DNA of 64,000 nt. Source: Eledone cirrhosa. Lineage: Eukaryota. This document shows, piece after piece, positions 1-44,365 of this stretch. The position numbers and the translations under genes were made by a program. Positions within the stretch are counted from its first letter, which is position 1. Each line of letters starts with the position of its first letter. The stretch is from positions 244,962,001 through 245,026,000 of the forward strand of contig OZ024742.1 in assembly GCA_964016885.1 (NCBI GenBank), given 5' to 3'. The notes beneath the pieces were generated by a model. That model made no database searches and was not told the DNA's origin. It was given only the letters and a program-made list of their open reading frames with translations.

Positions 1-673
1 AATTATTTAATTTTATTTTTTATGGCAAACATATTTTAACTGAAATTTGTTGAATAAAAGTGTTCAAAATTTGAAGTCCTATCATAATAGGACAGCGAGA
101 TTTGTTTGATGAATGTTCCCTAAATAAAGACAGGTTTTGCTTTTTGTCCTGCGAGTTATTTAGTTGTCACTTTCTTCACAAAGACAAAATAGCAGACTGT
201 TCGGTCGATTTAGTTGTCGACGACTCGATAAGGAACATATACATCTAGTGTTTGATTTCATGGCTATTAGAGGTTGATTTTTTTAACTGTTAAGTAATAA
301 ATTTCTGGTAATGAACTAGTGAGAAGAAACCTATGAACATTTTATTCTTTAATTGCTCACATCTAGCTTGTGAACAAATAGATAAAGTTTACCGTATACT
401 TTATGATTAGTTACCGGATACAGAGAGTGTTATATTATAGGTGAAATAGTCATTAAAGTAATTTGGTGAGTAAAAACTTAGCTTAGAAGAAAAAGGAAAT
501 TTATTTAGATAAATGGTGACAGTTTTTTTTTCTCTATTTCTATAATATACATTTAATTATGAATAATACTTTCCCACCTAAATACATCTACTTTTGAAAA
601 ACAAAGGTGTCAATGAATGATGAGAACTTCAGAAAGCAGGTTACAATGTGGTAGACATATACAAAGGACAAAT

Positions 674-1035
674 AATTGTTTCTACGTTTGACACAAGGTC
701 AGAAATTACTTGTACTTTATTTTGTCGACCACGTAAGGATGAAAGGCAAAATTAACCTCGGCAGGATTTGAACCCAGAACGTAAAGGACCATAACTCTGT
801 GTTGCAAAGCACGGTGTCTGATGCTCTACCGATACTGCCAAACCACCGCCCTAATAATTGTTTCTACTTTAGGCACAAGGCCAGCAATTACTCAGTACAT
901 TACTGGTACTTTATTTTAACGACCCCGTAAGGATGAAAGGCAAAATTGACCTCGGCGGGATTTGAACTCGGAATGGAAAGGGCCGTAACTCTATGCATCA
1001 AAGCATGACGTCCGACCCTCTACCGATACTGCCAA
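674..1035 (-). mobile_element. Two tandem tRNA-derived SINEs (family A, Nin-domain-like)
   Basis: Minus strand: box A-like TGGCAGTATCGG, box B GAGTTCAAATCC, core GCCTTTCATCCTTACGGGGTCGATAAAATAAAGTACCAG. Confidence 0.85.
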
Positions 1036-1429
1036 TATCCAGTCATACCTCCAGACCCTCTTTTAAAATGGAAAATAAAAACAATGCGTTTTTTTTTTGT
1101 TTTGTTTTTTAAACTAATCCGAGTGTTTGGATATTTCACCCCTCTCTCTTGTTTTTTGTTATTTGTCTCCAGATCTGCACCGTTCAAGTAGATCTATTAT
1201 CAAAAACATTCCAGCCATGTTCATCTTGTCTTTTAGGGGCAGGATGAAGGACTACATTATCTAACATGTCATATTCTTTAAAGACAGTTAAGTGTAATAC
1301 GAAGATGGTTTTTCTGCTATTTCTAGTTGATGTTTCTACGTTGTTGCTTTTTCGTGACTTTGATCAATAGTCATCTACTCTAATTCTAGTGCTTAAATAA
1401 TATATTTATGTATATAATGATCATGATTT

Positions 1430-1830
1430 AATGTCCTTTTTCTACGCTTGAATAGGTTGGACAGTTTTTCTCCATCACAACGTATTGTTGTCACTTGTTC
1501 CAGTCGTTTGTCACCTCATTCTTGTTGTCCAAGCCTCTAAGATTAGCCTCCCCCATATCTTTCTAGGTCTTCTCCTGCAGGTTCCTTCAACTTGGATTGC
1601 TTGGCACCTCTGTACCCAACTGTCATCATCTATCCACGCCAACAGAGTTTCCTATCTTGTACAATCTAGCCGATTCCTCTTATACCTAGTTTTTCTTTAA
1701 GTTAATTTTCACTCCATCGTTCTAATACTACTCTTCAGGCGCAACATGCTTGTCTCATTTCTTCCTAGCCATCACACACCCTCTGCATACAATACTCATA
1801 TTTCACTATCATGCAACATCGCACATTTCC
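1430..1830 (-). mobile_element. Old LINE 3' fragment (RTE-like)
   Basis: Minus strand resembles the RGRPRKxW..WR C-terminus of RTE ORF2; heavily decayed. Confidence 0.45.
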
Positions 1831-2089
1831 TTATTCCTCCCCCACATGCAGGTCACCTAGTACTTCTGTAAACCTATGTCTGCCAGAGCGATAATTCAGT
1901 TTTCGCAACTTCCAAAGGAATTCTTGTGAAACTGATCAGTTTTGTTAAACAAGAAATCCTGGTATAATTGCTAAGATTTGTCTTTTGTTTAGCGCTAGGT
2001 CTTTATAGTAGTAAACAAACAACAACAAAAAACTGTTCAATATATATGGCAACGAGGAAACAAAAAGAAAAAAGAGGAAAATATCGGAA

Positions 2090-3300
2090 CATCACGGCCC
2101 CTTTCAACGTTTGGTACCTGACTGATGCCACGTTGGGCGGGCACAAGGGGACTGTCTGCCACAACCTGTGATCCGTGGTTCCTGCTCTGGCGAGAATCAC
2201 CCTCGAGGTCAACTCGTCTAAGTTGGAGGTGGTGAATGTCCAGCACGATGCAGAGGGCTTTACAGCTTCTGTCTCGGACATGCGATCCATTTTCTGCCAG
2301 GTGCATGCGACCCCGAAAGAAGATGTCTTCATACTCAGGTCGCCGATCCTCCCGCCGGTCATCCGCTACACCATCAAGTTCAGGCTCCAACAACTCACAA
2401 CCATCACAAGCAGACTGGGCATTATTGACGCCCATCCAGCCCTCTTCCTGTTGAGGAACTGCTTCACCATGCCGAAGCTCCTCTATACACTTCGTAGCGC
2501 TCTTTGCTAGAGCCACGCATCTCTCCTTACTGACTTCGATACTTCTATCCGAGTTGCAGCTGAGGAGATATGCAATGTCAGATTTGACGATTTGGGATGG
2601 CAACAGGCCACCTTATCTGTTAGAAACGGTGACCTTGGTCTCCCTTTCGACTGGCACGCAGCTGGATAATGATAGCATGCGAATCGGAGTTCCCCTGTGG
2701 CTCGGCCTCTGGATCTGCGAGCCAAACAAACGTCGCTCCTCCGTATCCACGGTAGACTCATTTGGTCTCCACTCGCTATCGTGTCGCTACAATGCCGACC
2801 GCCTTCCACGCCATGCTGCTCTCAATGAGGTCATAAAGCATGGCTTGGATGCTGCAGGCTTCCCCTCCCAGCTCGAGCCAGCGGGGCTGGACCAAGGAGA
2901 CAGCAAAAGGTCAGACGACATGACCATCTTCCCGTGCCGCGGCGGTAAACCCCTCATCTGGGATGCCACATGCAGCGACACATTCTCCAATGGCAACTTG
3001 GTGCAGTTTGTGACTAACCCAGGTTCTGCTGCACTTCGCGCCGAAAAGGGTAAATTCTCCAAATATCTGTCGCTCTCCGACAGGTTTGCAGTCGAGCCCC
3101 TAGCAGTGGAGACTTATGATGTCCTTGGCCCTAGGGCCACCTCCCTACTCAACTCCATCGGCACAGAGCTGGCTACCTGCAGGCGTGAGCATCGCGAGTT
3201 GGAATAGTCCTTCCGACCCATCTCCTTCATCATCCTTCGGGGAATCGCCTTCTCTATTCTGTCCGCCGGGGCTGCGGGGTGGTCGGCGCGTGGGCCCCCA
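2090..3300 (+). mobile_element. Degenerate CRE-like non-LTR retrotransposon (RT remnant and restriction-like endonuclease)
   Basis: WYLTDATLGG (YLDD-like); H-x-LSC zinc-knuckle remnant; RH..RSDD..LIWDATCSDT..AEKGKFSKY..PLAVET (PD-(D/E)xK type RLE); frameshifted. Confidence 0.8.
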
Positions 3301-3578
3301 TTTGCTCAATGGGGAGAGACGGAGGCAGTGACAGTGGGAGTTTGGTTCCTTTATGTTCAGACCTCATACACACACACACACAGATATATATATATATATA
3401 TATCTATATATATAGTATTAAGGATACTATTTATGGTTATGTATATACTAAAACCTTAGATAGTAATATATATTTTAAACCCTAGACAGTGAAAGACAGT
3501 AATTTATTACTACATTATTAACAGTAAGATAAATAGCTCAATGTAATAACATCAGTTGTTCTACAGATACAGAGCAGT

Positions 3579-4003
3579 TATATAGAAATTACATGAATCA
3601 AAGTTCTGTTCAAATCATTTATTCGCTTACAATTGTTTCTTCCAAACCAAGGTTTGGAGTCTTCGGAGCAATTTTTCAATGATTGTTTACATACATGACC
3701 TCCTTTTCAATACAAGAGACATACAGAAACATATGTATATATCGATGCACAGTGGGTTGACATCCATTATAATATTTTAGCTTGGCAATTTACATTCAAA
3801 GATTAAAATCATATTATAATGGATGTCAACCCACTGTGCATCAATATATACATATGTTTCTGTATGTCTCTTGAAAAGGAGGTCATGTATGTAAACGATC
3901 ATTGAAAAATTGCTCCGAAGACTCCAAACTTCGGTTTGGAAGAAACAATTGTAAGCGAATAAATGATTTTGAACAGAACTTTGATTCATGTAATTTCTAT
4001 ATA
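3579..4003. repeat. Fold-back element, Penelope-like pLTR-derived
   Basis: Arms 3579-3775 / 3811-4003; TA tracts at about 3385-3412 and 3998-4021; hammerhead motif in the arms. Confidence 0.85.
3910..3958 (+). ncRNA. Minimal type-I hammerhead ribozyme motif (U4C variant)
   Basis: TTGCT-CCGAAGA-CTCCAAAC(TTCG)GTTTGGA-A-GAAA-CAATTG-TA-AGCGA: stem I, cUUCGg-capped stem II, palindromic stem III, GUA site. Antisense copy at about 3623-3671. Confidence 0.7.
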
Positions 4004-4084
4004 TATATATATATATATATAATGTTTCAGAAGATCCCGTTAAGGGTGAAAGCAGCGAATTTTTGCTTAAATTTTAATCTGTTA

Positions 4085-4159
<75 letters not shown>

Positions 4160-4182
4160 TTTACGGCCTCTGCTATAGAGAA

Positions 4183-4805
4183 AGAGTTAGAAAAAAAAAG
4201 GGAATTAAGTAACAAAATAAAGGAGGAGAAGGGACGAAAGGCATTACACCCTGTCTGAACGGTGTTTCAGCTGAGCCCCACGGATAAAATGGCAAAGGTA
4301 TTGCTGCGGTCAATGACCAGTGACATAAATATGTCAGCGATAGAATTCTTTTCTTTCTATTCGATTATCTATTAAGAGGTAGTCATGCATGTAGCTAAGC
4401 TATTATTAATTTGTTTCTATTTTAGGCCAAGGCCAGCAATTACCCAGTCCATTACTGGTACTTTATTTTATCGACCCCGTAAGGATGAAAGGCAAAGTTA
4501 ACCTCGGCAGGATTTGAACTCAGATCATAAAGGGACGTAACTCTATGCTTCAAAGCATGGTGTCCGACTCTCTACCGATACTGCCAATATTATTAATTTA
4601 ATGTTTTTTTTTCAGTAAAAGTTTCCTGGTATAAATTTTGCTTATATAAATTCCCCCTCGTGCTTTTTATATATATTTAAATACGCGCACATTTATACAC
4701 AGATAAACGCATTAAAAATATATACATGTACTTAAACACACACACACATATATATATATGCATATATATATATACACACACAATATGGGATGTCCACGTA
4801 AGCAT

Positions 4806-4845
<40 letters not shown>

Positions 4846-5642
4846 TATATATATATAAGTTAAAACAATGAAATAAAAAATCAAGTCATTAGAGATATAC
4901 TTCACTGATTTAATGTATTATCATCATCTAGAAACGATCGTAAAGCAGTGAAGTATATCTCTAATGACTTGATTTTTTTATTTCATTGTTTTAACTTATA
5001 TATATATATATATATATCAATGCTTACGTGGTCATCCCATATTGTGTGTATATATATATATATGCATATATATATATGTGTGTGTGTGTTTAAGTACATG
5101 TATATATTTTTAATGTGTTTATCTGTGTATAAATGTGCGCGTATTTAAATATATATAAAAAGCACGAGGGGGAATTTATATAAGCAAAATTTATACCAGG
5201 AAACTTATACTGAAAAAAAAACATTAAATTAATAATATTGGCAGTATCGGTAGAGAGTCGGACACCATGCTTTGAAGCATAGAGTTACGTCCCTTTATGA
5301 TCTGAATTCAAATCCCGCCGAGGTTAACTTTGCCTTTCATCCTTACGGGGTCGATAAAATAAAGTACCAGTAATGGACTGGGTAATTGCTGGCCTTGGCC
5401 TAAAATAGAAACAAATTAATAATAGCTTAGCTACATGCATGACTACCTCTTAATAGATAATCGAATAGAAAGAAAAGAATTCTATCGCTGACATATTTAT
5501 GTCACTGGTCATTGACCGCAGCAATACCTTTGCCATTTTATCCGTGGGGCTCAGCTGAAACACCGTTCAGACAGGGTGTAATGCCTTTCGTCCCTTCTCC
5601 TCCTTTATTTTGTTACTTAATTCCCTTTTTTTTTCTAACTCT
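4183..5642. repeat. Long near-perfect inverted duplication (about 700-bp arms) containing a SINE
   Basis: 4183-4912 is the reverse complement of 4941-5642 with about 6 substitutions and a TA-length difference; 4912-5000 is directly repeated at 5733-5822. Confidence 0.9.
4411..4587 (-). mobile_element. SINE family A (mirror copy at 5238-5415, plus)
   Basis: Family A consensus; lies in both arms of the 4183-5642 palindrome. Confidence 0.85.
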
Positions 5643-5824
5643 GTTAAAACAGCTGGTGATATGCATGTAAGTAAATATTCTCTCTATCTGATAGTTTGTA
5701 AACTACATAGATCAATAACTGAATATAGATACAATGTATTATCACCATCTAGAAACGATCGTAAAGCAGTGAAGTATATCTCTAATGACTTGATTTTTTT
5801 ATTTCATTGTTTTAACTTATATCA

Positions 5825-6060
5825 TGACTCTGTTTTCCTTTTAATGTCTACTCCCGAGTCTCCTGTCGGTTGGTTTTGCCCGTAAAATCTGTCCAGCGAT
5901 TCTTTTCTGAGACATTCTAACCACATGACCATAGTATTGGAGCTGTGATTTCTCAATTCGGAGAAGTAACTGCTTAACTGTAACTCTCTCATGTCTGAGA
6001 TATGCCCTCTATCGAGTAACGTTACTCCAAACACCCATCAAAGGAACCCCATTTTTTCTC
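5825..6060 (-). mobile_element. RTE-like LINE 3' fragment
   Basis: Similar to 50030-50240. Confidence 0.65.
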
Positions 6061-6477
6061 CTATTCTCCCTTTTGCAATGAAATACATTTAAATATAATT
6101 TAATGAGTCCACCTTGACTGATAAAGACATATCCGATCACTTCTAAATTTCATCTAATTTTACCTGTACAAGTACAGTTTATACATAAATTCAAAAACAG
6201 CTTAACTTCGACTTCGACTCATTGGTGTATCGATGAAATATTAGATATCGAAACAAACATTTGCAGATGATAAATAAAGAAACAATACAGCATACTTAGC
6301 TTTAGCTAGCATTTTTACAAAAACAAATAAAATATATAAATATACAAATATATTTAGTCTAAACGTGAGCATTGGTTTTCTTTTGATAGAGATCTCGTAC
6401 TGATAACGACGTAAAGTATTGTTTTGAAATAGTGATAAAGAAAATCGGTTTCTTTAACTGGCATGTTTACAATATCG

Positions 6478-6762
6478 ACCCAGGTTCTGCTGCACGTCAG
6501 GCTGAGGAGGCCAAACTCTTCAAATACCGGTCGCTCTCCGACAGGTTTGCGGTCGTACCCCTGGCAGTGGAGACTTCTGGTGTTCTCGGCCCAGAGCTAC
6601 CTCCTTACTCACCACCATAAGCGCTGAGTTGGCCAGCCGCAGCTGTGAGCCCCGCGAATTGGAGTGGCTTTTCCAGCGCGTCTCCCTTGCCGTCCTCCGG
6701 GGAAACGCCTTCTCCATTCTGTCCGCCGGGGCTGTGGGTGGGTCCCATCGCGTACCGTTGTA
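6478..6762 (+). mobile_element. CRE-like LINE 3' fragment
   Basis: Similar to 3017-3300 (AEEAKLFKY..PLAVETSGVLGP). Confidence 0.75.
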
Positions 6763-7197
6763 ATTGTTGTAGAAGAAACAAGAAGACATGTCTATCGTAA
6801 AAGGCTCTAATTAAATTGTTGTTGTTGTTGATGGTGATATTTAAAGCTATACATGCTTTAAAATATAATCAGTAACTTCTCACTTAAGCACATAACTGCC
6901 ATGAAAATATGGAACATAATGTTCGCAAATTGATAATTTGATTTTAATCGCTATCGAACTTGTTTCGTTTAAAAACAAATATGTCTCAAGAGGCCAATCG
7001 AAATTTCTTTACACGGAATTCTGAAAGAATGGACGCGCTGATAAGAACGAGTCTTGACCGTATCTCCAATAAACCCGATATAAGTCTCTGATATGCTGTT
7101 ATTATCTTGTTCCGGCTTAACACAATATACATTGATTTTTGAAAGGCAAGTTCCGTTGGGACGACAGTTTTTTTATTTGGTCGCTGCATTGCGGATT

Positions 7198-7290
7198 TCC
7201 TCCGCAAAATCAGAAACACAGTAGTCCGCCTGAGAAAGGAGCCCCGCGAGGTGGGGTGACAGTTGCAGCGAGTGTCACTGACCAGTCTCA
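7198..7290 (+). mobile_element. Short CRE-like LINE fragment
   Basis: Resembles the reverse complement of about 52110-52185. Confidence 0.5.
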
Positions 7291-7347
7291 GTTGAGGTAA
7301 CAATTGTTTGTAGCAATACAATTACAGGCATGATAAAAGACTATTAT

Positions 7348-7567
7348 TGGCGGTGGATTGGCAGTATCGGTAGAGCACCGAACACCATGCTTCGTGACAT
7401 AGAGTTACGTTCTTTATGTTCTGAGTTTAAATCTTGCCAATGTTAACTTTGCCTTTCATCCTTACGGAGTCTATAAAATAAAGTACCAGTAACGCACTGG
7501 GGTCGATTTAAATGACTTTCCCCTCACCCAAAATTGTTGACCTTGTGCCTAAATCAGAAACCATTAT
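7348..7567 (+). mobile_element. SINE family A (long-tail variant)
   Basis: Family A consensus; another copy at about 8106-8325 (minus). Confidence 0.85.
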
Positions 7568-8363
7568 TGATGTTTAAAAGGTTTAATGAGTTTGCAAGTT
7601 TTTAGAGCTAGAAAAGTTAATTTTATTTGAGTTTCTTTTAAAATATTATGAATTCTATGAGTTGTAATAACCCTCATCTAAAGATAATGAAGACATACTT
7701 TTACTAATGTTAGGAATTAAATTTCGTAGACTATAAAGTGGATGATTACAATTTTTATTTATATGTAATAATCGGGGTTGTATAGTGAAGTATATACGAA
7801 ATGTTTATGTTGAATAAACATCCTTTTAGCCTCGCTATGAATTTTAAAATGTATAATAAACATCCTTTTAGCCTCACTATGAATTTTGAAAAGGATTATT
7901 ACTGCTTATATAAAATAATCTTTCATTAGGTTTTCGCATAGGAGCAAAATATATTTATATGAAAATTTAAAGTAATCTAAAAAGAACAAAAGTAAAAAGA
8001 AACGAAAAGAAACTATACTCTCATCTTTAAAAGCATATGTTTCAGATGATCCCGCTTAGAGTGAAAGCATACATTTTTTGCTTGAACTTTTAATCTGTTA
8101 ATAATAATGATTTCTAGTATAGGCACAAAGCCAGTAATTTGGGGGGAGGGGAAAGTCGATTAAATCGACCCCAGTACGTTTCTGGTGCTTTATTTTATCG
8201 ACTCTGTAAGGATGAAAGGCAAAGTTAACCTCGGTGGTATTTGAACTCAGAACGCAAAGGGCCATAACTCTATGTTGCAAAGCATGGTGTCTGGCGCTCT
8301 ACCGATACTGCCAATCCATCGCCCTTTGATAATAATAATTACACACACACACACACACACACA

Positions 8364-8442
8364 CACGGTGTCCTAAAAATGTCTACACAGTTCAACAGCA
8401 TTCTAATAAATATGTGTATACATTTTTGGGCGACAACCTGTG
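8364..8442. mobile_element. Very short Tc1-like MITE
   Basis: Imperfect TIRs CACGGTGTCCTAAAAATGT.. / ..ACATTTTTGGGCGACAACCTG. Confidence 0.5.
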
Positions 8443-8778
8443 TATATAATCGATAATTTCACATAGTTCTCGCCCATCGTATGCTTCAATGTAAACATCA
8501 AACGGTTCGTCTTTGTATTTAAATTAACCTAGCACGAGTTATCAAACACAAAAGGATTTGCTTGTATTTATAATTACCTGGTTTACTAAGTGTTACAATG
8601 GTGTTCACTCAGCAAGAGTTTGGATTAGGATGAGTTTAGCTATGGAAGAATATAATGCCATAATATCAAATTAAGTAAATTTATCGTTTTGTTTGTTATT
8701 GTTTCTACTTTTGGCACAAGGTCAGCAATTATCCCAGTGCATTACTAGTACTTTATTTTATCGACCTCGTAAGGCTGA

Positions 8779-11235: not shown

Positions 11236-12116
11236 GGATTGGTAGAGGGTCGGACACCCTGCTTTGCAACACAGAGTTACGGCACTTTATGGTCTGAGTT
11301 CAAATCCCGCCGAGGTTAACTTTGCCTTTCATCCTTACGAGGTCGATAAAATAAAGTACCAGTAATGTAATAGGTAATTGTTGGCTTTGTGCCTAAAGTA
11401 GAAACAATTATATATAGGGCGGTGGATTGGCAGTATTGGTAGAGCGCCAGACACCATGCTTTGCAGCATAGAGTTTTGGCCCTTTAAATTCTGAGTTCAA
11501 ATCCCGCCGAGGTTAACTTTGCCTTTTATCCTCACGGGGTCGATAAAATAAAGTACTATTAATGCACTGGGATAATTGCTGGCCTTGTGCCAAAAGTAGA
11601 AACAATTATTTTTATTATCTTATATATATATATATATATTCTAGCCAATTAAGATAGGACTTATAACCCTACTGAAACTCAATGTAGTCTAGATATGAAT
11701 ATCCCATCGACAAAGCGAAATTTGTTTTTCTGGAAAAGTAGTGCCTTCGTACATGTTGAGTCAGATATTATAACGAGGTTTAGTATCTAAATTAATCCAT
11801 TGTTTTACGACCGTTTCAAAGGGCAAACTAATTTAAGATATTATCGATATATTTATGGAAACATTGTTTCTGAGGATGAACGGCAAAATTGATGAATTGG
11901 ATCGAAACTTTACTATGGACTGGCATAACTGCTATCGACCAGTATCAGTAGAGAGTAGGACGCCATGCTTTGACGCATAGAGTTACAGCCCTTGCCATTC
12001 TGAGTTCAAATCCCGCCGAGGTTAACTTTGCCTTTCATCCTTACGGGGTCGATAAAATAAAGTACCAGTAATACACTGGGTAATTGCTGGCCTTGTGCCA
12101 AAAGTAGAAACAATTA
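11236..12116 (+). mobile_element. Three SINE family A copies (11236-11410, 11417-11608, 11940-12116)
   Basis: Family A consensus. Confidence 0.85.
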
Positions 12117-14006
12117 TATCCATATCATAATCTATTTTGCCCTTCGAAGCGATCGTAAAACAATGAATTAATTTAAGTATTAAACCTTGTCTTATTTGTT
12201 TCCACGATTCAACTTTATATAAATGATATTAAATATTAGAGTCAGCTCTACACACCAGTTTGATATTGACAAAAAACAACACAGCTACACCAAACAAAAG
12301 ATACGTAGTTCAGTTTCCATCATTCGTTTCACAGTTTCTTTTCGATCTCAAATTGTCTTACAAATAAGATAATGTTTAAGGAGTTCATCCTTACCAAACA
12401 CACACTGGCACACTGTATACGTGTATATATGTATGTGTGTGCGTGTTCGTACATGCGTTCATGCACAGAAAAATCTTTTTTTGTTTGTTTTGCAGGAGCT
12501 GGTTGCTTAGAAACAGGAATGGAAGGGGATTTCTTTCTTTTTTTTCCCCTGTCTCTCTTGGAATTATTTCCAAATAAATTAGATACTAGGTATATTTGGT
12601 CGACAAGTAAAGCAAGAGACAGTTAATTAACATCATTGCTGCTTCAAAATTTCGCTGTCATATAGCATGTAAAGTTACTGACTGTGAACGAATCTATGTG
12701 CAGAAGGTTTGGACAGGGAAAGTGGGTCGATCGTAATCTGCTTCAGCTCATTGGGACTTTGACCAGAATAAACGTATAAAGAAAGCGAAATGAATTATTG
12801 ATATTCTACTACGGAAGTGACTGAGAAGGAAGCATATGTCAAACACGTACGTAGACGCACGTACACCCAAACAAACGCAAACACACTCACGTATACTCAC
12901 GTACACTCACTTCCAGACATACACATATGCTGACACACATACTTGCAGGCTTGCACATATGCAGACATACTCGTACGTGTACGCACATATATAGATGTAG
13001 TAAAAAAAAAAGGGGCTGGGGAGAGAAAGGGAGTATATGATTCTAGCAATGTTTGTTGCTATGCAATTGATTCAATGTAATTCAGTGACATTGTGGAAGA
13101 AGAGCAGGAATTTCCTACAATATTATCTACAACTAAATTAACATCTCTACTACCGAGAATGATAAAGAGTTTGCTAAAGTTGATCCATATTTTAGAGATG
13201 TTGACATTTAATGTAATTGATAGTGTAAGGTCACTTCTCTTCTGTCAAATAACAAAGGAAAGAAAAAGAAAAAAAAAACAACTCTCAGGAACGAATGAAA
13301 AAAATATATATATATAAAATTAAAAAAAAAAGTATTTTCTAGAAAAATTTTAAGAGAATTTTTTTTATAGTCCATAAAGTGTATTTTCATTTTAAATCCA
13401 TGTAGTAGTCAGTCGATCGACTTTCATCAAATCGGACCGATGAAATAATGTTTCCATTGGTCTTTCCAATTGCTAATACTATCTATCGGTCACAAATCCA
13501 GGTAGAAAGAGCAACGTGAAATAAAGAAACTTGCTCAAGGACATAACGCATCGCCCGGTCCGGTAATCAAACTCACGATTGCAAATCCAATTCTCTAGCA
13601 ACTCAGCCACGCGCCTTAGTAGCAATCAATGTGGTTTTATTGCATTATATATAAATCACTATGTATGTATGGACCCTTAACACCTAATAGAATCGTAGGG
13701 GTGCCGCAGATTCATACACCGTGTCTTGGGCATTTTAAGCCAGGCGGAGGCCTTACTCTCCCTCTTCAGGTGTGAATACAGCCGATTTTTTCTAGAGAAT
13801 GGAACAGAGAGAGCCGACCCGATCCCAGTACTTTACTCCCCTCCCCCCTGCAAGAATGAAAGTTAAAGTTGACCCCGGTGGATTTTCAACTCTGAACGCA
13901 GAGAGCGGGAATGATTACCGCAAAGCATTCTATCTGATGTTTTAACGACTCTGCCAATCGACAGGCTTGATAAATCGCTACGGAGATTGATATTTCAAAT
14001 ATACAG

Positions 14007-15440: not shown

Positions 15441-18400
15441 TCATATATAAAGAGTCTTGCAAAGCTTCTTGGGCCAATGTACTCGCCGACCGCTACGTGT
15501 GGTGGTGACATATGTAGGTGTAGGTGTGTGCGATGTTATATGTGTATTGTGGCTTGGCTGATGCCAGGTGTATGTGGGGGGAAAATGGGGCTCTTGTGTG
15601 AGAGTGTCTGTATAGGCCCGTTTTACCCTGTCAATGGACACAGTCTCTTTTTTACCCCCAATGTCTAGGGTGAATAGCTTATCTGTGCGCTCAAGCACGC
15701 GATAGGGACCGGTATAAGGTGGCATGAGAGGAGCTCTCACGGCGTCCTTTCGTAAAAAGACGTGGGTCCATGAAGCAATGTCTTTCGGGACCGAAGATTT
15801 GATTGTCTGTTGGCGAGGGTGCATAGGCGGAAGATTGCTGAAATATGATTGCAGTCTGCTCACATACAGAGCTGGGTCTGTTGCTGGTAGGTCCAATGGA
15901 GCTAACATCTGACCAGGCAGAGATATAGGCACTCCGTAAACCAACTCGGCGGGGGAGTAGCCTAGATCTTCCTTGATGGCTGCACGACAGCCCAGGAGGA
16001 CAATTGGTACATATTCGCTCCACCGCTGCTGATCCGGATAAGCGCGCAGTGCGGCTTTCAATTGGCGGTGGAAGCGTTCAATCATTCCGTTAGAAGCTGG
16101 ATGGTAGCTGGTCGTTCGAATGCGTTGCATTCCCAGGATCCTTGAAAGCTCTCGGAAAAGGTGTGACTCAAATTGTCCACCGCGGTCAGTGGTGATAGTG
16201 GCTGGAACTCCGTAACACGATATCCAACCCGACACTAGAGCTCGCGCCACAGATTCCGCCGAAATGTCACTTAAAGGAATGGCTTCAGGCCAACGTGTGA
16301 AGCGATCTATGCAGGTCAGGAGGTATGTAAATCCTCGGCTGACCGGCCATGGTCCGACAAGATCTATATGGACATGGCTGAACCTAGCGTCTGGAGTGCT
16401 GAAAGTTCCAAGGGGTGCGCGGATGTGTTTGTGCACCTTTGACTTTTGGCAGGATAGGCAGGAACGTGTCCAGGCAGTGATGTCACGCCTCATATTAGGC
16501 CAGAAGAATCTAGCCGAAATGAGCTTCACTGTGGTCGATATTCCAGGGTGTGCCAGACCGTGCAAGGTGTCGAAAACTGCTCGACGATGAGTCACTGGCA
16601 CTAGAGGGCGAGGTGCATCTGTCGAGGTGTCGCAGATAATCTGTGTGTCCGAAGTGGGCACAGGCAGATATGCAAATTTGCCAGTTGCAAATTCAGAAGA
16701 CGAGAGGTCCAAAGTATCCAGAGGTGGTTGTTCTGTGGCCATTCGTTGGAGGTCGATTTCCGCTGGCGATGACAGGGAATTAATTGGGAGGCGAGACAGT
16801 GCATATGCCGCCGCATTCTGTTCACCAGAGATGTGTCGGATATCGCTGGTAAATTGCGAAACGAAGTCCAAGTGGCGAGTTTCGCGAGGTGAATATTTGT
16901 CCGGCTTAGAACGCAGTGCGAACGTAAGCGGACGGTGGTCAGTGTATATAACAAATTGGCGACCCTCCAGTGAATGCCGAAAGTGTTTCACTGCAAGGTA
17001 CATAGCCAAGAGTTCACGGCCGAATGTGCTATACCGTGTTTCTGCAGGCTTCAGCTGTTTAGAAAAGTAGGCAAGAGGTTGTAACTGTTGTTGGTGATGT
17101 TGCAGTACTGCACCTACAGCTGTGCTTGATGCATCAACAACCAGTGAAAACTGGGCACCAGACACAGGATGTGCAAGCAGTGATGTCTCCGCAAGCTTCC
17201 GCTTCACTTCGTCGAAGGCTTTTAGCTGATTCGTGTCCAATGAAATGGAATCGTTCTTCTTTTTCCTGTTACGTAACAGGTCGGACAGAGGAGACAGGAG
17301 ATCCGCACAGTGTGGGATAAAGCGCCTGTAATAGTTCAGTAGCCCAAGGAAATGTCGTAGTTGACGAAGTGAAGTGGGTGGTTGGAGGTCTTGTACCGCT
17401 TTCACTTTATCAGGTAGTGGCGAAATTCCTTCTGGGCTGATGACATGGCCCAAGAAGACAAGTGAGGAAGCACCGAAAACACATTTTGCCGGATTAATTC
17501 TCACTTGGTATTTTTGAAATCTCTCGAACAGGAGACGGAGGTGATTGACATGTTCCTCAGGTGAGGCACTTGCCACAAGAATGTCGTCGATGTAGTTGTA
17601 CACGAAGTCTAAATCGCGCACAACCTCATCCATAAATCGTTGGAACGTGCTGGCTGCGTTTCGCAAACCGAAAGGCATGGTCAAAAATTCAAACGCTCCA
17701 AATGGAGTTGTTACTGCAGTTTTAGGTATGTCTGCCGGGTTCACCGGGATTTGGTGGTATGCTTTGACCAAATCCAATTTGGAGAATATGTTGCATCCAT
17801 GCAGCGAAGATGCAAAATCCTGTATGTGTGGTATCGGGTAGCGGTCGGGTACCGTCATTGCATTTAACCGGCGAAAGTCCCCAGTGGGACGCCAATCACC
17901 GGAACGCTTTGGTACCAAATGCAAGGGTGCGGCCCACGGGCTTGAGGATGGGCGAATGATCCCGAGCTGCAGCATGTGATTGAATTCAGCCCTTGCGGCC
18001 TTCAGTTTCTCAGCAGAGAGACGGCGAGGGCGCGAAAACACAGGAGCTCCGGATGTTTCAATGTGGTGCTTGGTGGAGTGAGTAGGCTCACTCATCACAA
18101 AATTCAAATTTGTTAATTCCGGGAAGGAATGCAAAAGTGATTGGTAAGGATTTTCTGTAGCAGCGATAAAGAAGACCGGGCTGACCGACGAGACAGTCGA
18201 TCTGGTACCCGGCACAGACAGTTCTGTGTTGGCATCCAACAACCGGCGTCTGCGCATATCCACTATCAAGTTATAGTGGTGCAGGAAATCTGAGCCTAGG
18301 ATGGGGTAAGGCAGATCAGCAACAGTGAAGATCCACGTGAAATCTCTACGCAATTCTAGGTTCAAAGAACGAGAAATCTGACCGTACGTGGGGATCGGTG

Positions 18401-18617
18401 ACTGGTTTACTGCTTGCAGAGAGACGGTTGAGAGTTGGGGCTTCTCTTTGAGAAGTTTTAGCGGCCAAATGCTACAAGCCGCGCCGGTGTCGATCAGACA
18501 ACGTGCTTGCGACTCAGTGTCTGTGATGAAAAACACACGGTTATTAGGGAGGGTCAGAGGAGACTGTGCCGTGCTCAGGTCTCCTGAAATCTGTTTCTCT
18601 GGTCTGAAAATGTACAA
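15441..18617 (-). CDS. pol: Pol polyprotein (protease, RT, RNase H, integrase), probably expressed by -1 frameshift from gag
   Basis: Uninterrupted 1058-aa ORF: LIDTGA protease; PFGLRNA and YIDD (RT); VDAS..ELLA..TDH (RNase H); HxxxH/CxxC, D,D-E and GPY (integrase). Overlaps the end of gag in the -1 frame. Confidence 0.95.
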
Positions 18618-19483
18618 GGCTGTTTACAGGAGCGTGCTGCTGCGCCAAAACGGCTGTGGTAGTAACACAAACCTGAACTGCTTGTGTGACGGCGTCGTGG
18701 CGATGGTGAACGGCTCTGGAAACGGCGTCTGGGCGAATGAGCCCTGTGAGTGCTTAGTTTTCTCACTTCCTTGGTTAGCTGCTCTATTGCTTGCAGCATT
18801 GCTGCATTTGCAAGTGACTGGTCGGTATAACTGGCAGCCGCTGGAGTGAAGGAAGCGACCGCAGTCGGCGGCTGGGATACATTGAAGGAGACAGGAGCGA
18901 ACGGATTGACCGCAGCCGGTGGCTGAGGTGCCTGGAAGGAGGCAGGAGAGAACGGATTGACCGCAGCCGGTGGCTGAGGTGCCTGGAAGGGGGCAAATGA
19001 GGCTGGGTGTCCGATGACACTCATAACCCTGTCGGCCGAAGCCGCTAGCTGGTCGACAGGAGCAGCCTCCATCATGGGCGCTAAGATCGCCTGAACTCCG
19101 GGGGGTAGCCTTGAGACAAAAAGCTGTCTAAGGAGGGCACTGTCAGCTGGGGCATCTTCCGCCAGCTCTCTCATCCGACGCAGTAGTTGTGTGGGCGTCC
19201 GATCACCCAAATGTTCGTCATTGACGAGCGTCTGAAATTTTTTTTCTGCGGACAATGTGGTCCGCCGCAACACTTCGAGCTTCACGCTCTCATAGGAGAC
19301 CCCAGGGCGAGGATCGGTAATTAAGTCTTTGACGACCGACGTCAATGACGCTGGAAAAGCGCTTAACAGGAGATTTAACTGTCTGTGGTCACTGGTGATG
19401 TTATTCGCTGTGAAATGTGCTTCTATCTGGGCGAACCAGACAGTGACGTCACCGGTAAACGGTGGCAATGAAGTGCTACCCAT
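18575..19483 (-). CDS. gag: Gag protein (302 aa from the first ATG) with CHCC zinc knuckle
   Basis: ORF 18575-19513, ATG at 19483 ([18 protein letters not shown]); C-terminal [18 protein letters not shown]; internal duplicated [13 protein letters not shown] (51-nt repeat). Confidence 0.9.
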
Positions 19484-20142
19484 TGTGTATACTGATGTAA
19501 AAGCAAAGGGCAAAGAAAGGACAACTCTGCACTTGTCACCGAGACAAAAGTGAAAATTCAGGCCAAGAAAAAATATAATCCGAGTGAAGGACAGAAAAAG
19601 AAAAATATATCAAAAACAATGTTGGAGGGAAAAACGTCAAGCTTTAAAAAAAAAAATTATGATTTATCTTTGTCCTATTATTATTATTATTATTATTTTT
19701 TTTTTTTTTTTGTGTACTTTTCAAAATGGCGTTGCCTCCGTCATTTTGGCGGGAAAACAGCTGAAGAAGACGGAAGTCGGCCATCTTGCTCTGTCCGGCT
19801 ATCAGCGCCAACAGTTTTTCTTTTAGTTTTTTTATAGCGTCGCCCAATCAGAAATTTAGAGGGAAAAATAAGATTTTTGTATTAACGCATGTGTTCGGTG
19901 ATGTTAGAAAGTGAAGGTGTGATGTGCAGATTTAGTAACAATAAGACAATATATCAAATACATATTAGGACTCACGCTAATCGCGTACATACCCCGAGAA
20001 AAGGCGAGTGGCTTTTTTTTTGGGGGGGGGGGGGGGGATGCGAAATGTTGATGTGTTCGTTGCAACGGAAAGATGTGGTTTCTTCTGTGTTGATGTCCTT
20101 AAACGTTCGGGTCACCATTTATAATGTGATTTGTTGTATCGT

Positions 20143-21550: not shown

Positions 21551-21633
21551 AAGTTTTATTTAAATTGTTGGGTTACAACGAGTAAATATTTATAACTGAT
21601 ATAAAAGCACTCAACAAGTATTTGGAGTATATT

Positions 21634-21999
21634 TACGATATTAAATAAATGGAAACTATATTTATAAAACCATATTTATTTCATTATACATATTTCAGGG
21701 ATATCATATTAAAAATATGGTATGCCTTCATCAGACAAAATACAATATAAACAGTCTTATAAATAGATAGATTTGACATACCTTACAACTTCAACTTCCA
21801 TTTAAAAATCAACTACCAAATCAACTTTTTAAATGGAAGTTGAAGTTGTAAGGTATGTCAAATCTATCTATTTATAAGACTGTTTATATTGTATTTTGTC
21901 TGATGAAGGCATACCATATTTTTAATATGATATCCCTGAAATATGTATAATGAATAAATATGGTTTTATAAATATAGTTTCCATTTATTTAATATCGTA
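21634..21999. repeat. Fold-back element, Penelope-like pLTR-derived
   Basis: Arms 21634-21808 / 21826-21999, near identical, 17-nt loop; about 85-bp unpaired extension on the left; TA tracts on both sides. Confidence 0.9.
21894..21955 (+). ncRNA. Minimal type-I hammerhead ribozyme motif
   Basis: TTTTGT-CTGATGA-AGG..CCT-GAAA-TATGTA-TA-ATGAAT with canonical core; mirror copy on minus in the left arm. Confidence 0.75.
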
Positions 22000-22135
22000 T
22001 ATATATATATATATATATATATATGTAGAGGTTATATTTAATTTGTTGGGATTCAACAAGCTTAAAAGTTTTTATAACTGATATAAAGCACTCAACAAGT
22101 TAGTGGAGTAAATACACAACATATTAAAAGATGGG

Positions 22136-22766
22136 AAACTATATTTATAAAACCATATTTATTTATTTTATTATACAAAGTTATCAAAGTTATATTTCAA
22201 GGGCGACCAAGGTAAATTATGGTGCGCTTTCATCAGATAAAATACAGATTTGTTTTATAAATAAATAGACATACCCGGAAAAAAACAACCTCAACGGTTG
22301 AAATTTGCTGGATAGTGGAGATACTTGAGCGTGATACAAAGTTGTGAGTGAGTATGTAAATGAGTGAGTATGCAATTTGAGAGGGAGAGAGATAAAGAGA
22401 ATAGATTCTCTTTATCTATTCTCTTTATCTCTCTCCCTCTCAAATGTTTGTCTCTCTCCTTTTTACATCTATTTTGTCTCTCTCCCTTTTACATCTATTT
22501 TCTTCCAACAGTTTAATTTAAATAAACCGTTGCTTTTTTCAATTTTTCCGACACTCATTTGCATACTCACTCACAACTCTGTGTCACCCTCAAGTATCTC
22601 CACTATCCAGCGAATTTCAACCGTTGAGGTTGTCTTTTTTCCGGGTATGTCAATATTTATTTATAAAACAAATTTGTATTTCATCTGATGAAAGCGTACC
22701 ATAATTTACCTTGGTCGCCCTTGAAATATATATAATAAAATAAATATGGTTTTATAAATATAGTTT
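22136..22766. repeat. Fold-back element related to the 21634 element
   Basis: Arms 22136-22366 / 22552-22766; left extension 22025-22135 similar to 21548-21655; GA/TC hairpin in the spacer (about 22379-22441). Confidence 0.85.
22679..22741 (+). ncRNA. Minimal type-I hammerhead ribozyme motif
   Basis: TTTCAT-CTGATGA-AAGCG..CGCCCTT-GAAA-TATATA-TA-ATAAAA with canonical core and palindromic stem III. Confidence 0.75.
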
Positions 22767-22785
22767 GCATTTATTAATTAATATA

Positions 22786-23020: not shown

Positions 23021-23097
23021 ATATATTGAGTTAGAAACTCAAAATAGTCTCTTACAATTAAATAGCTCAAGGAAAGAGATTTTTCCGGGCCATGTAA

Positions 23098-23604
23098 TAT
23101 AATTGAATATATAAGAGAGATAACACAGATATATACATATATGTGTTCAAATTGTAAGGGACCAGATTCGCTAAGGTGAAAAAAATACTAACTATGAACA
23201 ATAGGGTTTGCCAGACTCAATTTAAAAGAATAAATCAAGAAAAGAAATACAAACCGATATTGGCACCCAGACAGATTTTGGTAATGCTGTTTCGCAATTT
23301 TAGTGAAGGGAATTACCAATTCTTTTGCTCATCAGTGGGTGTAAAAATTAGTAAACCCTTCACTTCTAAGTATCTCAGAAGACTGAATAGTGTACGTATA
23401 TAAAATAACGCACATGGCATCAGAACCCAGCGTGTCTCATAAACGTATACTCCTAAAAATAGCAGCCAAGTTTACTCGACTGAGTCTGGCAAACCCTATT
23501 GTTCATAGTTAGTATTTTTTTTCACCCTAGCGAATCTGGTCCCTTATGATTTGAACACATATATGTATATATCTGTGTTTATCTCTCTTTTATATTCAAT
23601 TATA
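23098..23604. repeat. Fold-back element between TA tracts
   Basis: Arms 23098-23219 / 23481-23604; only a degenerate GAACA-CATATATG-TA half-motif. Confidence 0.8.
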
Positions 23605-23965
23605 TATATCTATATATATATATATGTTCACCCAAACGGAAATAATTTAGGATATTGACATCCATACGAGCTAGATGAGAGAATAAAAAATTATTCATTG
23701 CGTAAAATATATGTCTGGGAAGGAATTTCCAGATTAATCTAGTTTTACGGATTAAGGGAGCTGAAAAAATAGATAGTATGGATATGGCTGTGAGAATAGG
23801 ATGAAGCAGGTTGCGATTAGTAGCTTAAAAAATGGAAAATTATGAAAAGTCATCACTCTATGTGGTTTTTCTAATTGGTTTCTGTCATAAAAGCTGAGAC
23901 TGGATCTACCGAAATAAGAAAACTGTTTCAATATTGCAATTGCATAAAAATCTTTCACATATCAT

Positions 23966-30879: not shown

Positions 30880-31660
30880 GCTAGCTCTACAACGCGCACC
30901 TGGTTATTTATCACCCAATGCTAGCTCTACAACGCGCACCTGGTTATTTATCACCCAATGTTAGCTCTACAATGCGCACCTGGTTATTTATCACCCAATG
31001 CTAGCTCTACAACGCGCACCTGGTTATTTATCACCCAATGTTAGCTCTACAATGCGCACCTGGTTATTTATCACCCAATGCTAGCTCTACAATGCGCACC
31101 TGGTTATTTATCACCCAATGCTAGCTCTACAATGTGCACCTGGTTATTTATCACCCAATGCTAGCTCTACAATGTGCACCTGGTTATTTATCACCCAATG
31201 CTAGTTCTACAATGCGCACCTGGTTATTTATCACCCAATGCTAGCTCTACAACGCACACCTGGTTATTTATCACCCAATGCTAGCTCTACAACGCGCACC
31301 TGGTTATTTATCACCCAATGCTAGCTCTACAACGCGCACCTGGTTATTTATCACCCAATGTTAGCTCTACAACGCGCACCTGGTTATTTATCACCCAATG
31401 CTAGCTCTACAATGCGCACCTGGTTATTTATCCCCTAAAGCTAGCTCTACAATGTGCACCTGGTTATTTATCACCAATGCTAGCTCTACAATGCGCACCT
31501 GGTTATTTATCACCAATGCTAGCTCTACAATGCGCACCTGGTTATTTATCACCTATGGCCAGCTCTAAAGTATTCTCCCGTGTAGTTTTTATCCGGGGCT
31601 ATCTCTACAATGTACTTCTGAGTATTTAGCAACCAAGGCTAGCTTTACAATGTGTACCTT
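30880..31660. repeat. 40-bp minisatellite, about 17 good units plus a decayed tail
   Basis: Unit GCTAGCTCTACAAYGCGCACCTGGTTATTTATCACCCAAT. Confidence 0.95.
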
Positions 31661-33285: not shown

Positions 33286-35325
33286 TCATTTCACATGGCT
33301 CCTTCTGCTTCATTTCACATTGTTCCTTCTGTTTCATTTCACATTGCTCCTTCTGCCTCATATCACGTTGCCCCTTCTGCTTCATTTCACATTTCTCCTT
33401 CTGCCTCATTTCACATTGCTCCTTCTGCTTCATTTCACATTTCTCCTTCTGCTCCATTTCACATTTCTCCTTCTGCTTCATTTCACATTGCTCCTTCTGC
33501 CTCATATCACATGGCTCCTTCTGCTTCATTTCACATTTCTCCTTCTGCTTCATTTCACATTGCTCCTTCTGCCTCATTTCACATTTCTCCTTCTGCCTCA
33601 TTTCACATTGCTCCTTCTGCTTCATTTCACATTGCTCCTTCTGCCTCATATCACATTTCTCCTTCTGCCTCATATCACATTTCTCCTTCTGCTTCATTTC
33701 ACATTTCTCCTTCTGCTTCATTTCACGTTGCTCCTTCTGCTTCATTTCACATATCTCCTTCTGCTTCAATTCACATTTCTCCTTCTGCCTCATTTCACAT
33801 TGCTCCTTCTGCCTCATTTCACATTGCTCCTTCTGCCTCATTTCACATTGCTCCTTCTGCTTCATTTCACATTGCTCCTTCTGCCTAATTTCACATTTCT
33901 CCTTCTGCCTCATATCACATTGCTCCTTCTGCATCATTTCACATCGCTCCTTCTGCTTCATTTCACATTTCTCCTTCTGCTTCATTTCACATTTCTCCCT
34001 CTGTTTCATTTCACATTGCTCCTTCTGCCTCATTTCACATTTCTCCTTCTGCGTCATTTCACATTGCTCCTTCTGCCTCATTTCACATTGCTCCTTCTGC
34101 CTCATTTCACATTGCTCCTTCTGCCTCATTTCACATTTCTCCTTCTGCCTCATATCACATGGCTCCTTCTGCTTCATTTCACATTTCTCCTTCTGCTTCA
34201 TTTCACATTGCTCCTTCTGCCTCATTTCACATTTCTCCTTCTGCCTCATTTCACATTTCTCCTTCTGCCTCATTTCACATTGCTCCTTCTGCCTCATATC
34301 ACATTTCTCCTTCTGCCTCATATCACATTTCTCCTTCTGCTTCATTTCACATTTCTCCTTCTGCTTCATTTCACGTTGCTCCTTCTGCTTCATTTCACAT
34401 TTCTCCTTCTGCTTCAATTCACATTTCTCCTTCTGCCTCATTTCACATTGCTCCTTCTGCCTCATTTCACATTGCTCCTTCTGCCTCATTTCACATTGCT
34501 CCTTCTGCTTCATTTCACATTGCTCCTTCTGCCTAATTTCGCATTTCTCCTTCTGCCTCATATCACATTGCTCCTTCTGCCTCATTTCACATCGCTCCTT
34601 CTGCTTCATTTCACATTTCTCCTTCTGCTTCATTTCACATTTCTCCCTCTGCTTCATTTCACATTGCTCCTTCTGCCTCATTTCACATTTCTCCTTCTGC
34701 CTCATTTCACATTGCTCCTTCTGCCTCATTTCACATTGCTCCTTCTGCCTCATTTCACATTGCTCCTTCTGCCTCATTTCACATTTCTCCTTCTGCCTCA
34801 TATCACATGGCTCCTTCTGCTTCATTTCACATTTCTCCTTCTGCTTCATTTCACATTGCTCCTTCTGCCTCATTTCACATTTCTCCTTCTGCCTCATTTC
34901 ACGTTTCTCCTTCTGCCTCATTTCACATTTCTCCTTCTGCCTCATTTCACATTGCTCCTTCTGCCTCATATCACATTGCTCCTTCTGCCTCATATCACAT
35001 TTCTCCTTCTGCCTCATTTCACATTGCTCCTTCTGCCCCATATCACATTTCTCCTTCTGCTTCATTTCACATTGCTCCTTCTGCCTCATTTCACATTTCT
35101 CCTTCTGCCCCATTTCACATTGCTCCTTCTGCCTCATATCACGTTGCTCCTTCTGCCCCATTTCACATTGCTCCTTCTGCTTCATTTCACATTGCTCCTT
35201 CTGCCTCATATCACATTTCTCCTTCTGCCTAATTTCACATTTCTCCTTCTGCCTCATTTCACATTTCTCCTTCTGCTTCATTTCACATTTCTCCTTCTGC
35301 CTCATTTCACATTGCTCCTTTTGCT
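33286..35325. repeat. 24-bp minisatellite, about 85 units
   Basis: Unit CATTTCACATTKCTCCTTCTGCYT. Confidence 0.95.
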
Positions 35326-37762: not shown

Positions 37763-37912
37763 ATATTCATTTTATTAAGGCTAAATAGTGAGTTTTGTTA
37801 CTCTGGAGATTCGCCTGTTTATCACAGGGTCATCTTGTCTGATAACCCTGCGATAAACAAGCGAAACTCCAGAGTAACAAGACTCACTATTTAGCCTTAA
37901 TAAAATGAATAT
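37763..37912. repeat. Short fold-back element made mostly of a hammerhead motif and its mirror
   Basis: Arms 37763-37834 / 37841-37912. Confidence 0.85.
37834..37881 (+). ncRNA. Type-I hammerhead ribozyme motif (G8A in this arm; the mirror arm has GATGA)
   Basis: CTTGT-CTGATAA-CCCTGCGATAAACAAGC-GAAA-CTC(CA)GAG-TA-ACAAG; perfect stem I; the mirror arm restores stem II CCTGT/ACAGG. Confidence 0.7.
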
Positions 37913-39526: not shown

Positions 39527-39824
39527 ATATAAAAATGGAAAAACTCGGCAGCAAGGAAGCTGCTAAAACAGCGAAATGCCGTCGAAACGACGTTGGGTAA
39601 AACATTACCTCGGAGGATAGAAATTAACGGCTCGAAGAATTGATAGGAAGGAAGAAATAGAATGGATGATAGGAGATCACAAACATTTAAATACATTCAT
39701 TCTATTTCTTCCTTCCTATCAATTCTTCGAGCCACTGATTTCTGTCCTACGAGGTAATGTTTTACTCAACGTCATTTCGACAGCAATTTGCTGTTTTGAC
39801 AGCTTCCTTGCGCCGGGTTTTTCC

Positions 39825-39834
<10 letters not shown>
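39527..39834. repeat. Older fold-back element next to TA tracts
   Basis: Arms 39527-39668 / 39694-39834, roughly 85-90% identical. Confidence 0.8.
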
Positions 39835-40835: not shown

Positions 40836-42182
40836 AATTGTTACTTGGAAGTGTCTGATCTTGGTATGGTTAATAGGTGTTTGGCAATTAACTATTAAAT
40901 ATTCATGTTATATGTAGAACCTATTTGACACGAGTACATTTTTTGGTATATAATTATTTGTTCATTATTTTTGTTTAGCTTCAGGTAAACCCTAATTGAG
41001 CAAAGACATTCTTATCGTGGCCATCCAGTATTTTGAGACAGTTTATCCCAAACTAGATTATTATATGTTTTATAGCTGGTAGAGTGGGATTTGAGAGAGA
41101 TTTAACTTATATTTTTAGCAGGACGAGCGACTTCATAAAGATTCCTTCATTAGTTCGTCCCAAATTGGGAGGTTTATTCGAAGTGAAAGAAAAAATAGTT
41201 TAGAAAACGTCAGACATTACTTTGTGTAGATAATACCTTGTTTCAGTTTCTATAACTTTATTACTGGGGTAAGCATATCTTCTGGTAGTTAATTCTATAC
41301 CGAGATCAGTTTTGAGGTAGAAGGTTAGACCAGGAAGTTTAGAAGAAATATTTGGAAAGGAAGACTAGAAGGGCAACATGGTAATGCAAGAGGAGCTTGA
41401 GAACCATAAAATAAAATGGTTAAGCCCATACATAAAGGAAAAATTAAACAAGAACAAGAAAAATTGTTTGATGAAGTCAAAAATATATATTTATAAGTAA
41501 CTGGGAGTTAAACATTTGATCCCCCGCTTTAAAGACAAAGAAGAAAAAACTATTTAAAATTATATTATAAAGATACCTTACAGTTATAAAGATACCTTAC
41601 ATTTTATGCATGTATAATAATTTATAATGTACCGTGAAGACAAGAGATTTTTAACGCTTATAGCAGGACCTTTCTTCGAAAATGTATTATATTTAATTTT
41701 GGTTATTCTCGGTTTCAATTTCAACTCTCATCGAGGGAAACTTTGCCTTTCTTTTCCTCGTAGTAGAATATGATACCCAGTACTATATTGGTATCAGTTA
41801 AAATGACTATATCGCTCTTTAAAATTTGTCCCAATCCAATCCAGGACCTTCTCACTTCTGTTGGAGGAACTCCTCCTTGGTTGATCTCCAGCAATTTCTG
41901 TTTGGTTTTGGTCATGTCAGGTGTGTAGCCGCACTGACCATGCTTTCCCATTTGTGAACTGCTGAGTCTATTTACTCCATAGTTGGGTGAAAATTTATCC
42001 CAGTGTCTAAATAATATTCACTAATACAGTATCAACCAACCCTCTTATTGTTTTCTTATTTTTGTTATTACCAAATTTGATACAGCAAACATTTTTTACG
42101 TGCTTATCTCAGCTGCCATTGTGTAGTCATAATTGAATTACTAAAATCGTTCCAGCTTAACAATCTCGTCTTTTTAGACATA

Positions 42183-42353
42183 CCGTATTTCCCGGCGCCG
42201 AAGACGCTTCGTCCTCGAGGACGCACTCTAATTTTGACTACCAAACATTTGAAAAACAAATAATAATAAACAACCTTCGGCTTCCAGGACCCATGGTAGA
42301 TTTTGAGACTTATTTTAGAAAAAATGTAGCGTCTTCGACGCCGAGAAATACGG
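42183..42353. mobile_element. MITE, Tc1/mariner-pogo type
   Basis: TIRs CCGTATTTCCCGGCG / CGCCGAGAAATACGG, TA on both sides. Confidence 0.85.
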
Positions 42354-43992: not shown

Positions 43993-44042
<50 letters not shown>

Positions 44043-44174
44043 GAATAGAACTAACCGAGACTATGTAAATATGTATATAAATTTACACATTATTATATAG
44101 ACACCCAAACATGGCAAATACGTATTACCTTGTAAATTGCTAAATTAAAAAAAATAAATATATATATATATATA

Positions 44175-44359: not shown

Positions 44360-44365
44360 TATATA

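Follow-up and report, generated by a model that had tools for sequence, protein, structure and literature searches.

The inverted duplication at positions 4183-5822 of the window, the whole 64,000-nt stretch of Eledone cirrhosa DNA analysed here, is likely a DNA-repair scar left by an insertion of the Penelope type (PLE) rather than a copied read-through RNA. In the preferred reading, to which a probability of about 0.5 can be given, one PLE-type insertion entered a (TA)n run and the neighbouring flank was duplicated at the DNA level, by sister-end fusion or by fold-back, the two being indistinguishable here. The mirror layout is real in the assembly and comprises the following features, in window coordinates:

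4148-4182, unstranded: left flank (L), a (TG)n run with about 22 bases of non-repeat sequence, following (TA)29 at 4090-4147; one match in the window
4183-4807, minus: left arm, in which host segment Y is copied in mirror orientation, including a SINE at 4411-4588
4808-4857, unstranded: (TA)n, 25.5 units with one interruption; likely target site
4853-4912, minus: inverted 5'-truncated repeat stub (the 3' 61 nt of X), with T6 where X and X' have T7
4912-5001, plus: X, a 5'-truncated stub of the repeat in direct orientation; GAAA-CGATCG-TA lies at 4931-4942
4997-5017, unstranded: (TA)n, 21 nt
5018-5642, plus: Y, low-copy host DNA, parts of which are covered by contigs of organism B
5237-5414, plus: SINE inside Y, predating the duplication
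5646-5822, plus: P-X', longer 5'-truncated copy of an abundant repeat
5823-5845, plus: candidate one-sided PLE tail or host flank, from one contig of another locus
5846-6054, plus: right flank (R), fragment of a different repeat, 82% to 50029-50240

The two arms, 4183-4828 and 4997-5642, align over 646 nt without gaps and with 6 mismatches, as near-identical as the sequence-only reading had held them to be. Both carry private changes, two of which are CpG transitions, and two 9-base runs of Y have the same length in both arms; the private changes fit aged real copies, and the difference of about 1% between the arms marks the product as aged and hence likely inherited. Beyond the (TA)n runs, which are unequal (25.5 units on the left versus 21 nt on the right), the mirror resumes, with 4853-4912 being the reverse complement of X from position 4941 (61 nt, one substitution and one one-base gap), and a spacer of 28 nt (4913-4940) separates the inverted from the direct stub. 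The mirrored arm does begin at 4941, as had been claimed, 2 nt from the predicted hammerhead cut: T4941 and A4942 of the GTA triplet are mirrored, and the inner arm end lies 2 nt upstream of the first post-cut base. At the turn, the last A is common to X, giving 1 nt of microhomology, and one further base is extra. The outer mirror end (5642) falls within 3 nt of the start of P. The recurrence of X at X' was likewise borne out (4912-5001 versus 5733-5822, 89 of 90 positions identical, GAAA-CGATCG-TA in both). The stub arms differ at 2 of 61 positions versus 6 of 646 in the Y arms, a difference short of significance (Fisher p 0.15 when the indel is counted, 0.47 when it is not). An 8-nt word at 5638-5645 recurs at 5828-5835, bracketing P-X', and is a candidate target-site duplication of this copy, or else repair microhomology; such a match was reached by 62 and 43 of 20000 random placements, under tolerances set after the match had been seen. 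The mirrored host segment contains no gene, and an open reading frame scan found no RT or GIY-YIG frame at the locus. The genome is that of an animal and rich in AT microsatellites. The window has no N, and a 2-kb tandem array as well as long microsatellites are resolved in it, which suggests a long-read assembly. The mirror layout is as seen in the assembly, and among the contigs listed only Y|P of its four junctions is spanned.

Sequencing runs were used to gauge the abundance of these segments. The run search listed 23 rows, 20 of which hold part of the stretch, and the three that hold half or more of its words are one sample (S1); no RNA run is among the rows listed, which says nothing about expression. 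Contigs were aligned from four of the 23 listed runs, three of sample S1 (X1-X3, organism A) and one of organism B; the S1 contig evidence consists of 32 listed pieces of about 422,000, and bins without cover in X1-X3 (4079-4175, 4758-4854 and 6213-6300) were left out as evidence. In organism A the summed contig depth, which is not equal to copy number, was 28,000-84,000 over P-X versus about 10-40 over the non-SINE parts of Y, a disparity on which the earlier idea of X-Y-P-X as resembling a retrozyme unit fails. In organism B the summed depth was 390-5,700 over P-X, and parts of Y were covered too. Since family contigs run across P into X', with alignments starting at 5646-5649, P-X' is one 5'-truncated copy of a very abundant repeat, and X and the inverted stub are shorter copies of it; P, previously taken for a segment separate from X, belongs with X' to one repeat, of which it forms the 5' part. 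Host DNA of low copy number makes up Y, which in the window occurs in the two arms only. The locus thus holds three 5'-truncated copies of one repeat, with every 3' end directed outward and both central stubs abutting (TA)n. X, X' and the inverted stub differ where the family itself varies (C/T at 5745, about 57/43; T7/T6, with T6 in about 71% of the depth), and these differences, together with the equal runs of Y, make it somewhat more likely that the stubs came from separate RNA templates and that the Y arms owe their identity to DNA, although the excess of stub differences is not significant. A circular P-X unit of 190 nt including the 8-mer was considered and found no support, two family contigs ceasing to align at 5646 and 5649 with unaligned letters beyond. 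The 22-nt motif of X matched no stretch in the metagenome contigs.

The contigs of S1 that cover Y have depths of 9-17, similar to the other contigs listed. One contig of 124 nt (5552-5675; X1 and X2), with no other letters, passes Y|P without a stop at 5642, and another, over 5103-5262, has one mismatch to either arm, carrying one left-type and one right-type letter. A one-base deletion at 5546/4276 (depth 5-7) differs from both arms, so S1 may come from an animal other than the assembled one. Among the 32 S1 contigs listed (of about 422,000) none spans L|rc(Y) at 4183 or the centre at 4912. S1 may hold Y once, joined to P. The evidence for this is weak: short branches that lead into repeats are pruned by contig builders, and the window letter at 5723 has a depth of 5.8 in X1 and 7.0 in X2, about half that of Y, but of 21.3 in X3.

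The SINE in Y, which we take to be of octopod type, had been described as full; it is present at 5237-5414, and the first bases found in most other copies are missing from it. Over 176 columns compared with the majority of the 10 other window copies, six departures are common to both arms, two of them in no other window copy, and each arm has one private departure. The SINE had thus aged by the time of the duplication.

The motifs of a type I hammerhead, GAAA followed by a short palindromic stem III and a NUH triplet, are present at 4931-4942 and 5752-5763, and motifs of this type have been described for PLEs (PMC4209133). Two parts of the sequence-only interpretation, the hammerhead 3' half and the link to PLEs, stand. 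The CUGANGA half is indeed not identifiable at the locus, as that reading cautioned: the sole look-alike is CTGAATA at 5719, and Rfam returned no match in the window at gathering score, its 41 weak matches in 3300-8500 including no hammerhead and being mostly hairpin or microsatellite noise. X lacks the core and stem I and retains a single strand of stem II, and no stem II closes before its GAAA. Stem I at the locus forms 2 of 8 pairs, versus 6, 8 and 7 of 8 in three other motifs of the window. In P-X' a long domain II is predicted, in which 5646-5670 pairs with 5727-5751 (-17.7 kcal/mol); none of 1000 shuffles was as stable, and it came first among 700 windows taken along the right arm. Taken as a whole, the 146-nt stretch is not more stably folded than its shuffles (z -0.36). 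The look-alike CTGAATA (5719-5725, plus strand) is probably not a core: it lies inside the predicted loop with a stem I of 2/8, its short stem II was equalled in stability by 596 of 1000 shuffles, and the family G at 5723 leaves the motif non-canonical. CTGTTAA at 5641-5647 was also considered as a possible decayed core; two of its six fixed letters are off, a match that by a rough estimate is not beyond chance, and one family contig starts aligning at 5646, inside this word.

P starts 106 nt before GAAA, and in a related window copy the core lies about 90 nt before GAAA once a SINE is removed. By homology, P-X' is predicted to be truncated at the 3' edge of the core, which would lie just upstream of 5646 in longer copies, and the family may carry an intact type I motif of the PLE kind. 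As core and stem I are missing from every local copy, none is predicted to self-cleave, and a local transcript is predicted to stay uncut at 4942. Of the remaining parts of the earlier interpretation, the retrozyme unit did not hold up, and an RNA that starts at the ribozyme cut and reads through the flank is unsupported at this locus. Locally X, which starts at 4912 and runs through the cut site, cannot make the cut, and two extra coincidences would be needed: the insertion would have to coincide with the 5' end of X, and the start with Y|P. A copy self-primed by the domain II hairpin was rejected as well, since it would begin at GAAA (4931) and not at 4912 or 4941. The 5' ends at 4912, 4941 and 5646 match fold landmarks, namely the top of stem II, the cut site and the base of stem II, a correspondence noticed post hoc.

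Several other hammerhead-bearing sequences were observed in the window. The related copy, an older relative of P-X at 11773-12230, has within 11842-12230 a full hammerhead with a stem I of 8/8, CTGAGGA and a long domain II, the latter split by a SINE (11940-12117) inside the hammerhead loop. Next to the locus, a 436-bp palindrome (3579-4003, 188 of 192 identical in ungapped columns) carries a near-canonical type I hammerhead in both arms, with a CCGAAGA core and a stem I of 6/8, and its family is abundant in organism A. A short repeat following (TA)n, at 4022-4084 and 8037-8100, carries CAGA(A/T)GA...GAAA in each copy and may be a hammerhead variant whose core has A at position 4.

At its centre the locus has the known head-to-head PLE junction (PMC8557442, PMC3846280). 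PLE insertions are described, in PMC8557442 and PMC11167929, as often having an inverted 5'-truncated copy beside a direct copy, a one-sided tail of 30-40 bp and (TA)n targets; here too, the inverted 5'-truncated copy (4853-4912) adjoins the direct copy (4912-5001), both with 3' ends outward, the target is AT-rich or (TA)n, and the hammerhead 3' half lies about 60 nt from the 3' end, as it does in those endonuclease PLE insertions. Unlike them, the present locus has three stubs instead of two, both central stubs on (TA)n, about 640 bp of mirrored host flank and no RT/GIY-YIG frame. The window holds seven other head-to-head stubs, five with a recognisable hammerhead; the survey left out SINE-SINE pairs, the element at 42180-44362, a hairpin inside the 22123 stub and a 68% pair at 61681-63446. 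None of the five has an inverted arm that ends at the cut, the distances upstream of it being 143, 36, 122, 183 and 36 nt; on a flat guess, an arm end within 2 nt of the cut would be an event of about 3% per stub. The arm end at 4941 is thus suggestive, one case making no rule. A long TA run lies on one side only in four of the seven other stubs and on both sides in none, versus both sides at the present centre, where, uncommonly, each stub abuts a (TA)n run with the same host segment beyond it. The head-to-head stubs of the window include those at 21628-22005, 22123-22778 and 37763-37912, all with hammerhead motifs, and at 23097-23605 and 39527-39834, where the scans found no such motif.

Under the preferred reading, a PLE enzyme acting in trans would have cut (TA)n between L-rc(Y) and R, and cDNAs would have been primed on repeat RNA free of host DNA. 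Two copies of one DNA end would then have been present, either as sister ends after replication or as one end folded back and copied, and the joining of these two ends through their short cDNAs would have produced the palindrome. The extra arm would end about 640 bp out and be linked to R by the cDNA of R itself, P-X'. The stop of the inverted stub at 4941 may reflect a ribozyme-cut repeat RNA serving as template, or chance. In a variant with the same core claim, the right arm would be original, with X and P-X' placed in one event; the 8-nt repeat around P-X', which resembles a target-site duplication and counts against the preferred form, points to the right arm as original. The predicted product is an inert scar. 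Such a single event would account for a TA run on both sides of the centre, which is expected of two copies of one DNA end, and for a mirror end within 3 nt of P, which is natural if Y|P was newly joined in that event and otherwise a coincidence. In PMC11167929, both strands of AT-rich DNA are reported to have been cleaved and extended by a PLE protein in vitro, with no need for ribozyme cleavage, and the origin of inverted PLE structures is still regarded as open in PMC8557442. Counted against a single event are the microhomology of only 1 nt at the turn, the single contig on which the tail reading of 5823-5845 rests, and the fact that no empty allele was seen. The unbranched Y|P and the apparently single context of Y in S1 also count against it and fit an older P-X', although as evidence they are weak. 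The arm end at the cut stays unexplained unless the predicted family ribozyme is active. A more specific form of this account, quite unlikely as a whole, is that one insertion primed three cDNAs, two on the same chromosome end, which fused, and a third that healed the break, with one of them copied from hammerhead-cleaved RNA; if true, the locus would be an inherited record of PLEs bridging sister DNA ends and mirror-duplicating host DNA, and of a ribozyme-cut RNA used as template in vivo.

Other histories have to be weighed against this one. It is possible, though unlikely, that an RNA from a source site in which two repeat copies frame Y was copied by a PLE in trans into L|R, one arm being a copy of the whole RNA and the other a copy of Y that halted at the hammerhead cut. 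Two direct copies and one inverted copy framing host DNA are the layout of PLE-mobilised DNA in Adineta vaga (PMC3846280), and the inverted arm end 2 nt from the predicted cut, like the absence of a visible branch at Y|P among the S1 contigs listed, would be in keeping with such an origin. However, the best direct match around the whole structure is 2 nt, with no target-site duplication, L is not the upstream part of R's repeat according to the window comparison, and Y is low-copy and confined in the window to its two arms. The left arm would moreover need to start exactly at Y|P and not at the family 3' end, X runs through the cut site, none of the five other stubs ends at the cut, and for the PAc element PMC11167929 reports no RNA reads starting or ending at the cut. 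A history in two steps is improbable as well: P-X' would have entered Y|R with an 8-bp duplication and an ordinary mirror stub would have entered (TA)n; later, host replication or repair, with that stub as a hairpin, would have run back over Y and then rejoined L. The 8-nt repeat around P-X' favours it within the post hoc tolerances given above, duplications of 8-10 bp being typical of PLEs, although their insertions can lack one (PMC3846280), and so do the unbranched Y|P and the mixed arm letters in 5103-5262, as an unduplicated haplotype of S1 would show them. The slightly greater divergence of the stub arms than of the Y arms points the same way without reaching significance. Against it, copying would have had to halt by chance within 3 nt of P after an arm of about 700 nt, and the contig from a different locus, which aligns with 10 other letters over 5738-5847, would assign the right 8-mer to the tail of the repeat.

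An assembly artefact, with a second haplotype or a mis-walked Y placed as the left arm in mirror orientation at a true short palindromic stub, is very unlikely. A difference of about 1% lies within what alleles can show, the left and central junctions are unbridged among the contigs listed, and the depth of Y in S1 looks single. Inverted PLE structures are also said in PMC8557442 to trouble assemblies. Two unrelated novel junctions would nevertheless be required, in a window that has no N and resolves its arrays and microsatellites, and S1, which differs from both arms, need not be the assembled individual.

Both ingredients of the preferred reading are already published, namely the head-to-head PLE junction and the inverted duplication of flanks at L1 breaks. 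In human L1 retrotransposition, bioRxiv 10.1101/2024.12.14.628481 and PMC7058536 describe inverted flank duplications at retrotransposition breaks with a small spacer and little homology at the turn (about 2 bp), fold-backs being attributed in the former to replication and fusion of an unligated end and bridging of sister chromatids by cDNA being described in the latter. The L1 events are somatic or from cell lines, whereas the present turn lies inside PLE-type element sequence. Its spacer measures 28 nt, with 1 nt in common. The pLTR-framed capture in Adineta vaga (PMC3846280) likewise has non-element DNA framed by terminal repeats, two direct and one inverted, and one case there has part of the captured insert inverted upstream of the 5' pLTR; it has an 8-bp duplication around the whole and an empty allele proving transposition, whereas here there is no such duplication, nearly the whole host segment is mirrored, and no source copy or empty site is known. 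Animal non-LTR retrozymes, as presented in bioRxiv 10.64898/2026.07.22.740005, are similarly non-coding and PLE-related with type I hammerhead features, and X-Y-P-X' would give a cut-to-cut unit of 821 nt. In contrast to them, the locus has no complete hammerhead and no tandem units, and Y is not amplified. A literature search largely confined to papers outside subscription journals, and without supplements, showed no account of PLE insertions with a mirrored flank.

The behaviour of broken ends prior to joining can be read from rare insertions that mirror a flank. Were such scars common, PLEs would be a source of inherited inverted duplications of host DNA in this animal, as L1 is in tumours; their frequency cannot be established from one locus without an empty allele.

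Beyond the sequences related to the locus, the window contains further repeats. At 42180-44362, terminal inverted repeats of about 190 bp lie 1.8 kb apart between TA, as in a non-autonomous DNA transposon, presumably Tc1/pogo-like. On the minus strand, 15441-19609 contains an open pol frame of 1060 aa and an upstream frame of 344 aa, and 57311-60167 a broken second copy, which by their motifs we take to be Gypsy-like gag and pol. Finally, two tandem arrays were recognised, one of 40 bp x 17 at 30880-31567 and one of 24 bp x 85 at 33286-35324, the latter being open in several frames.
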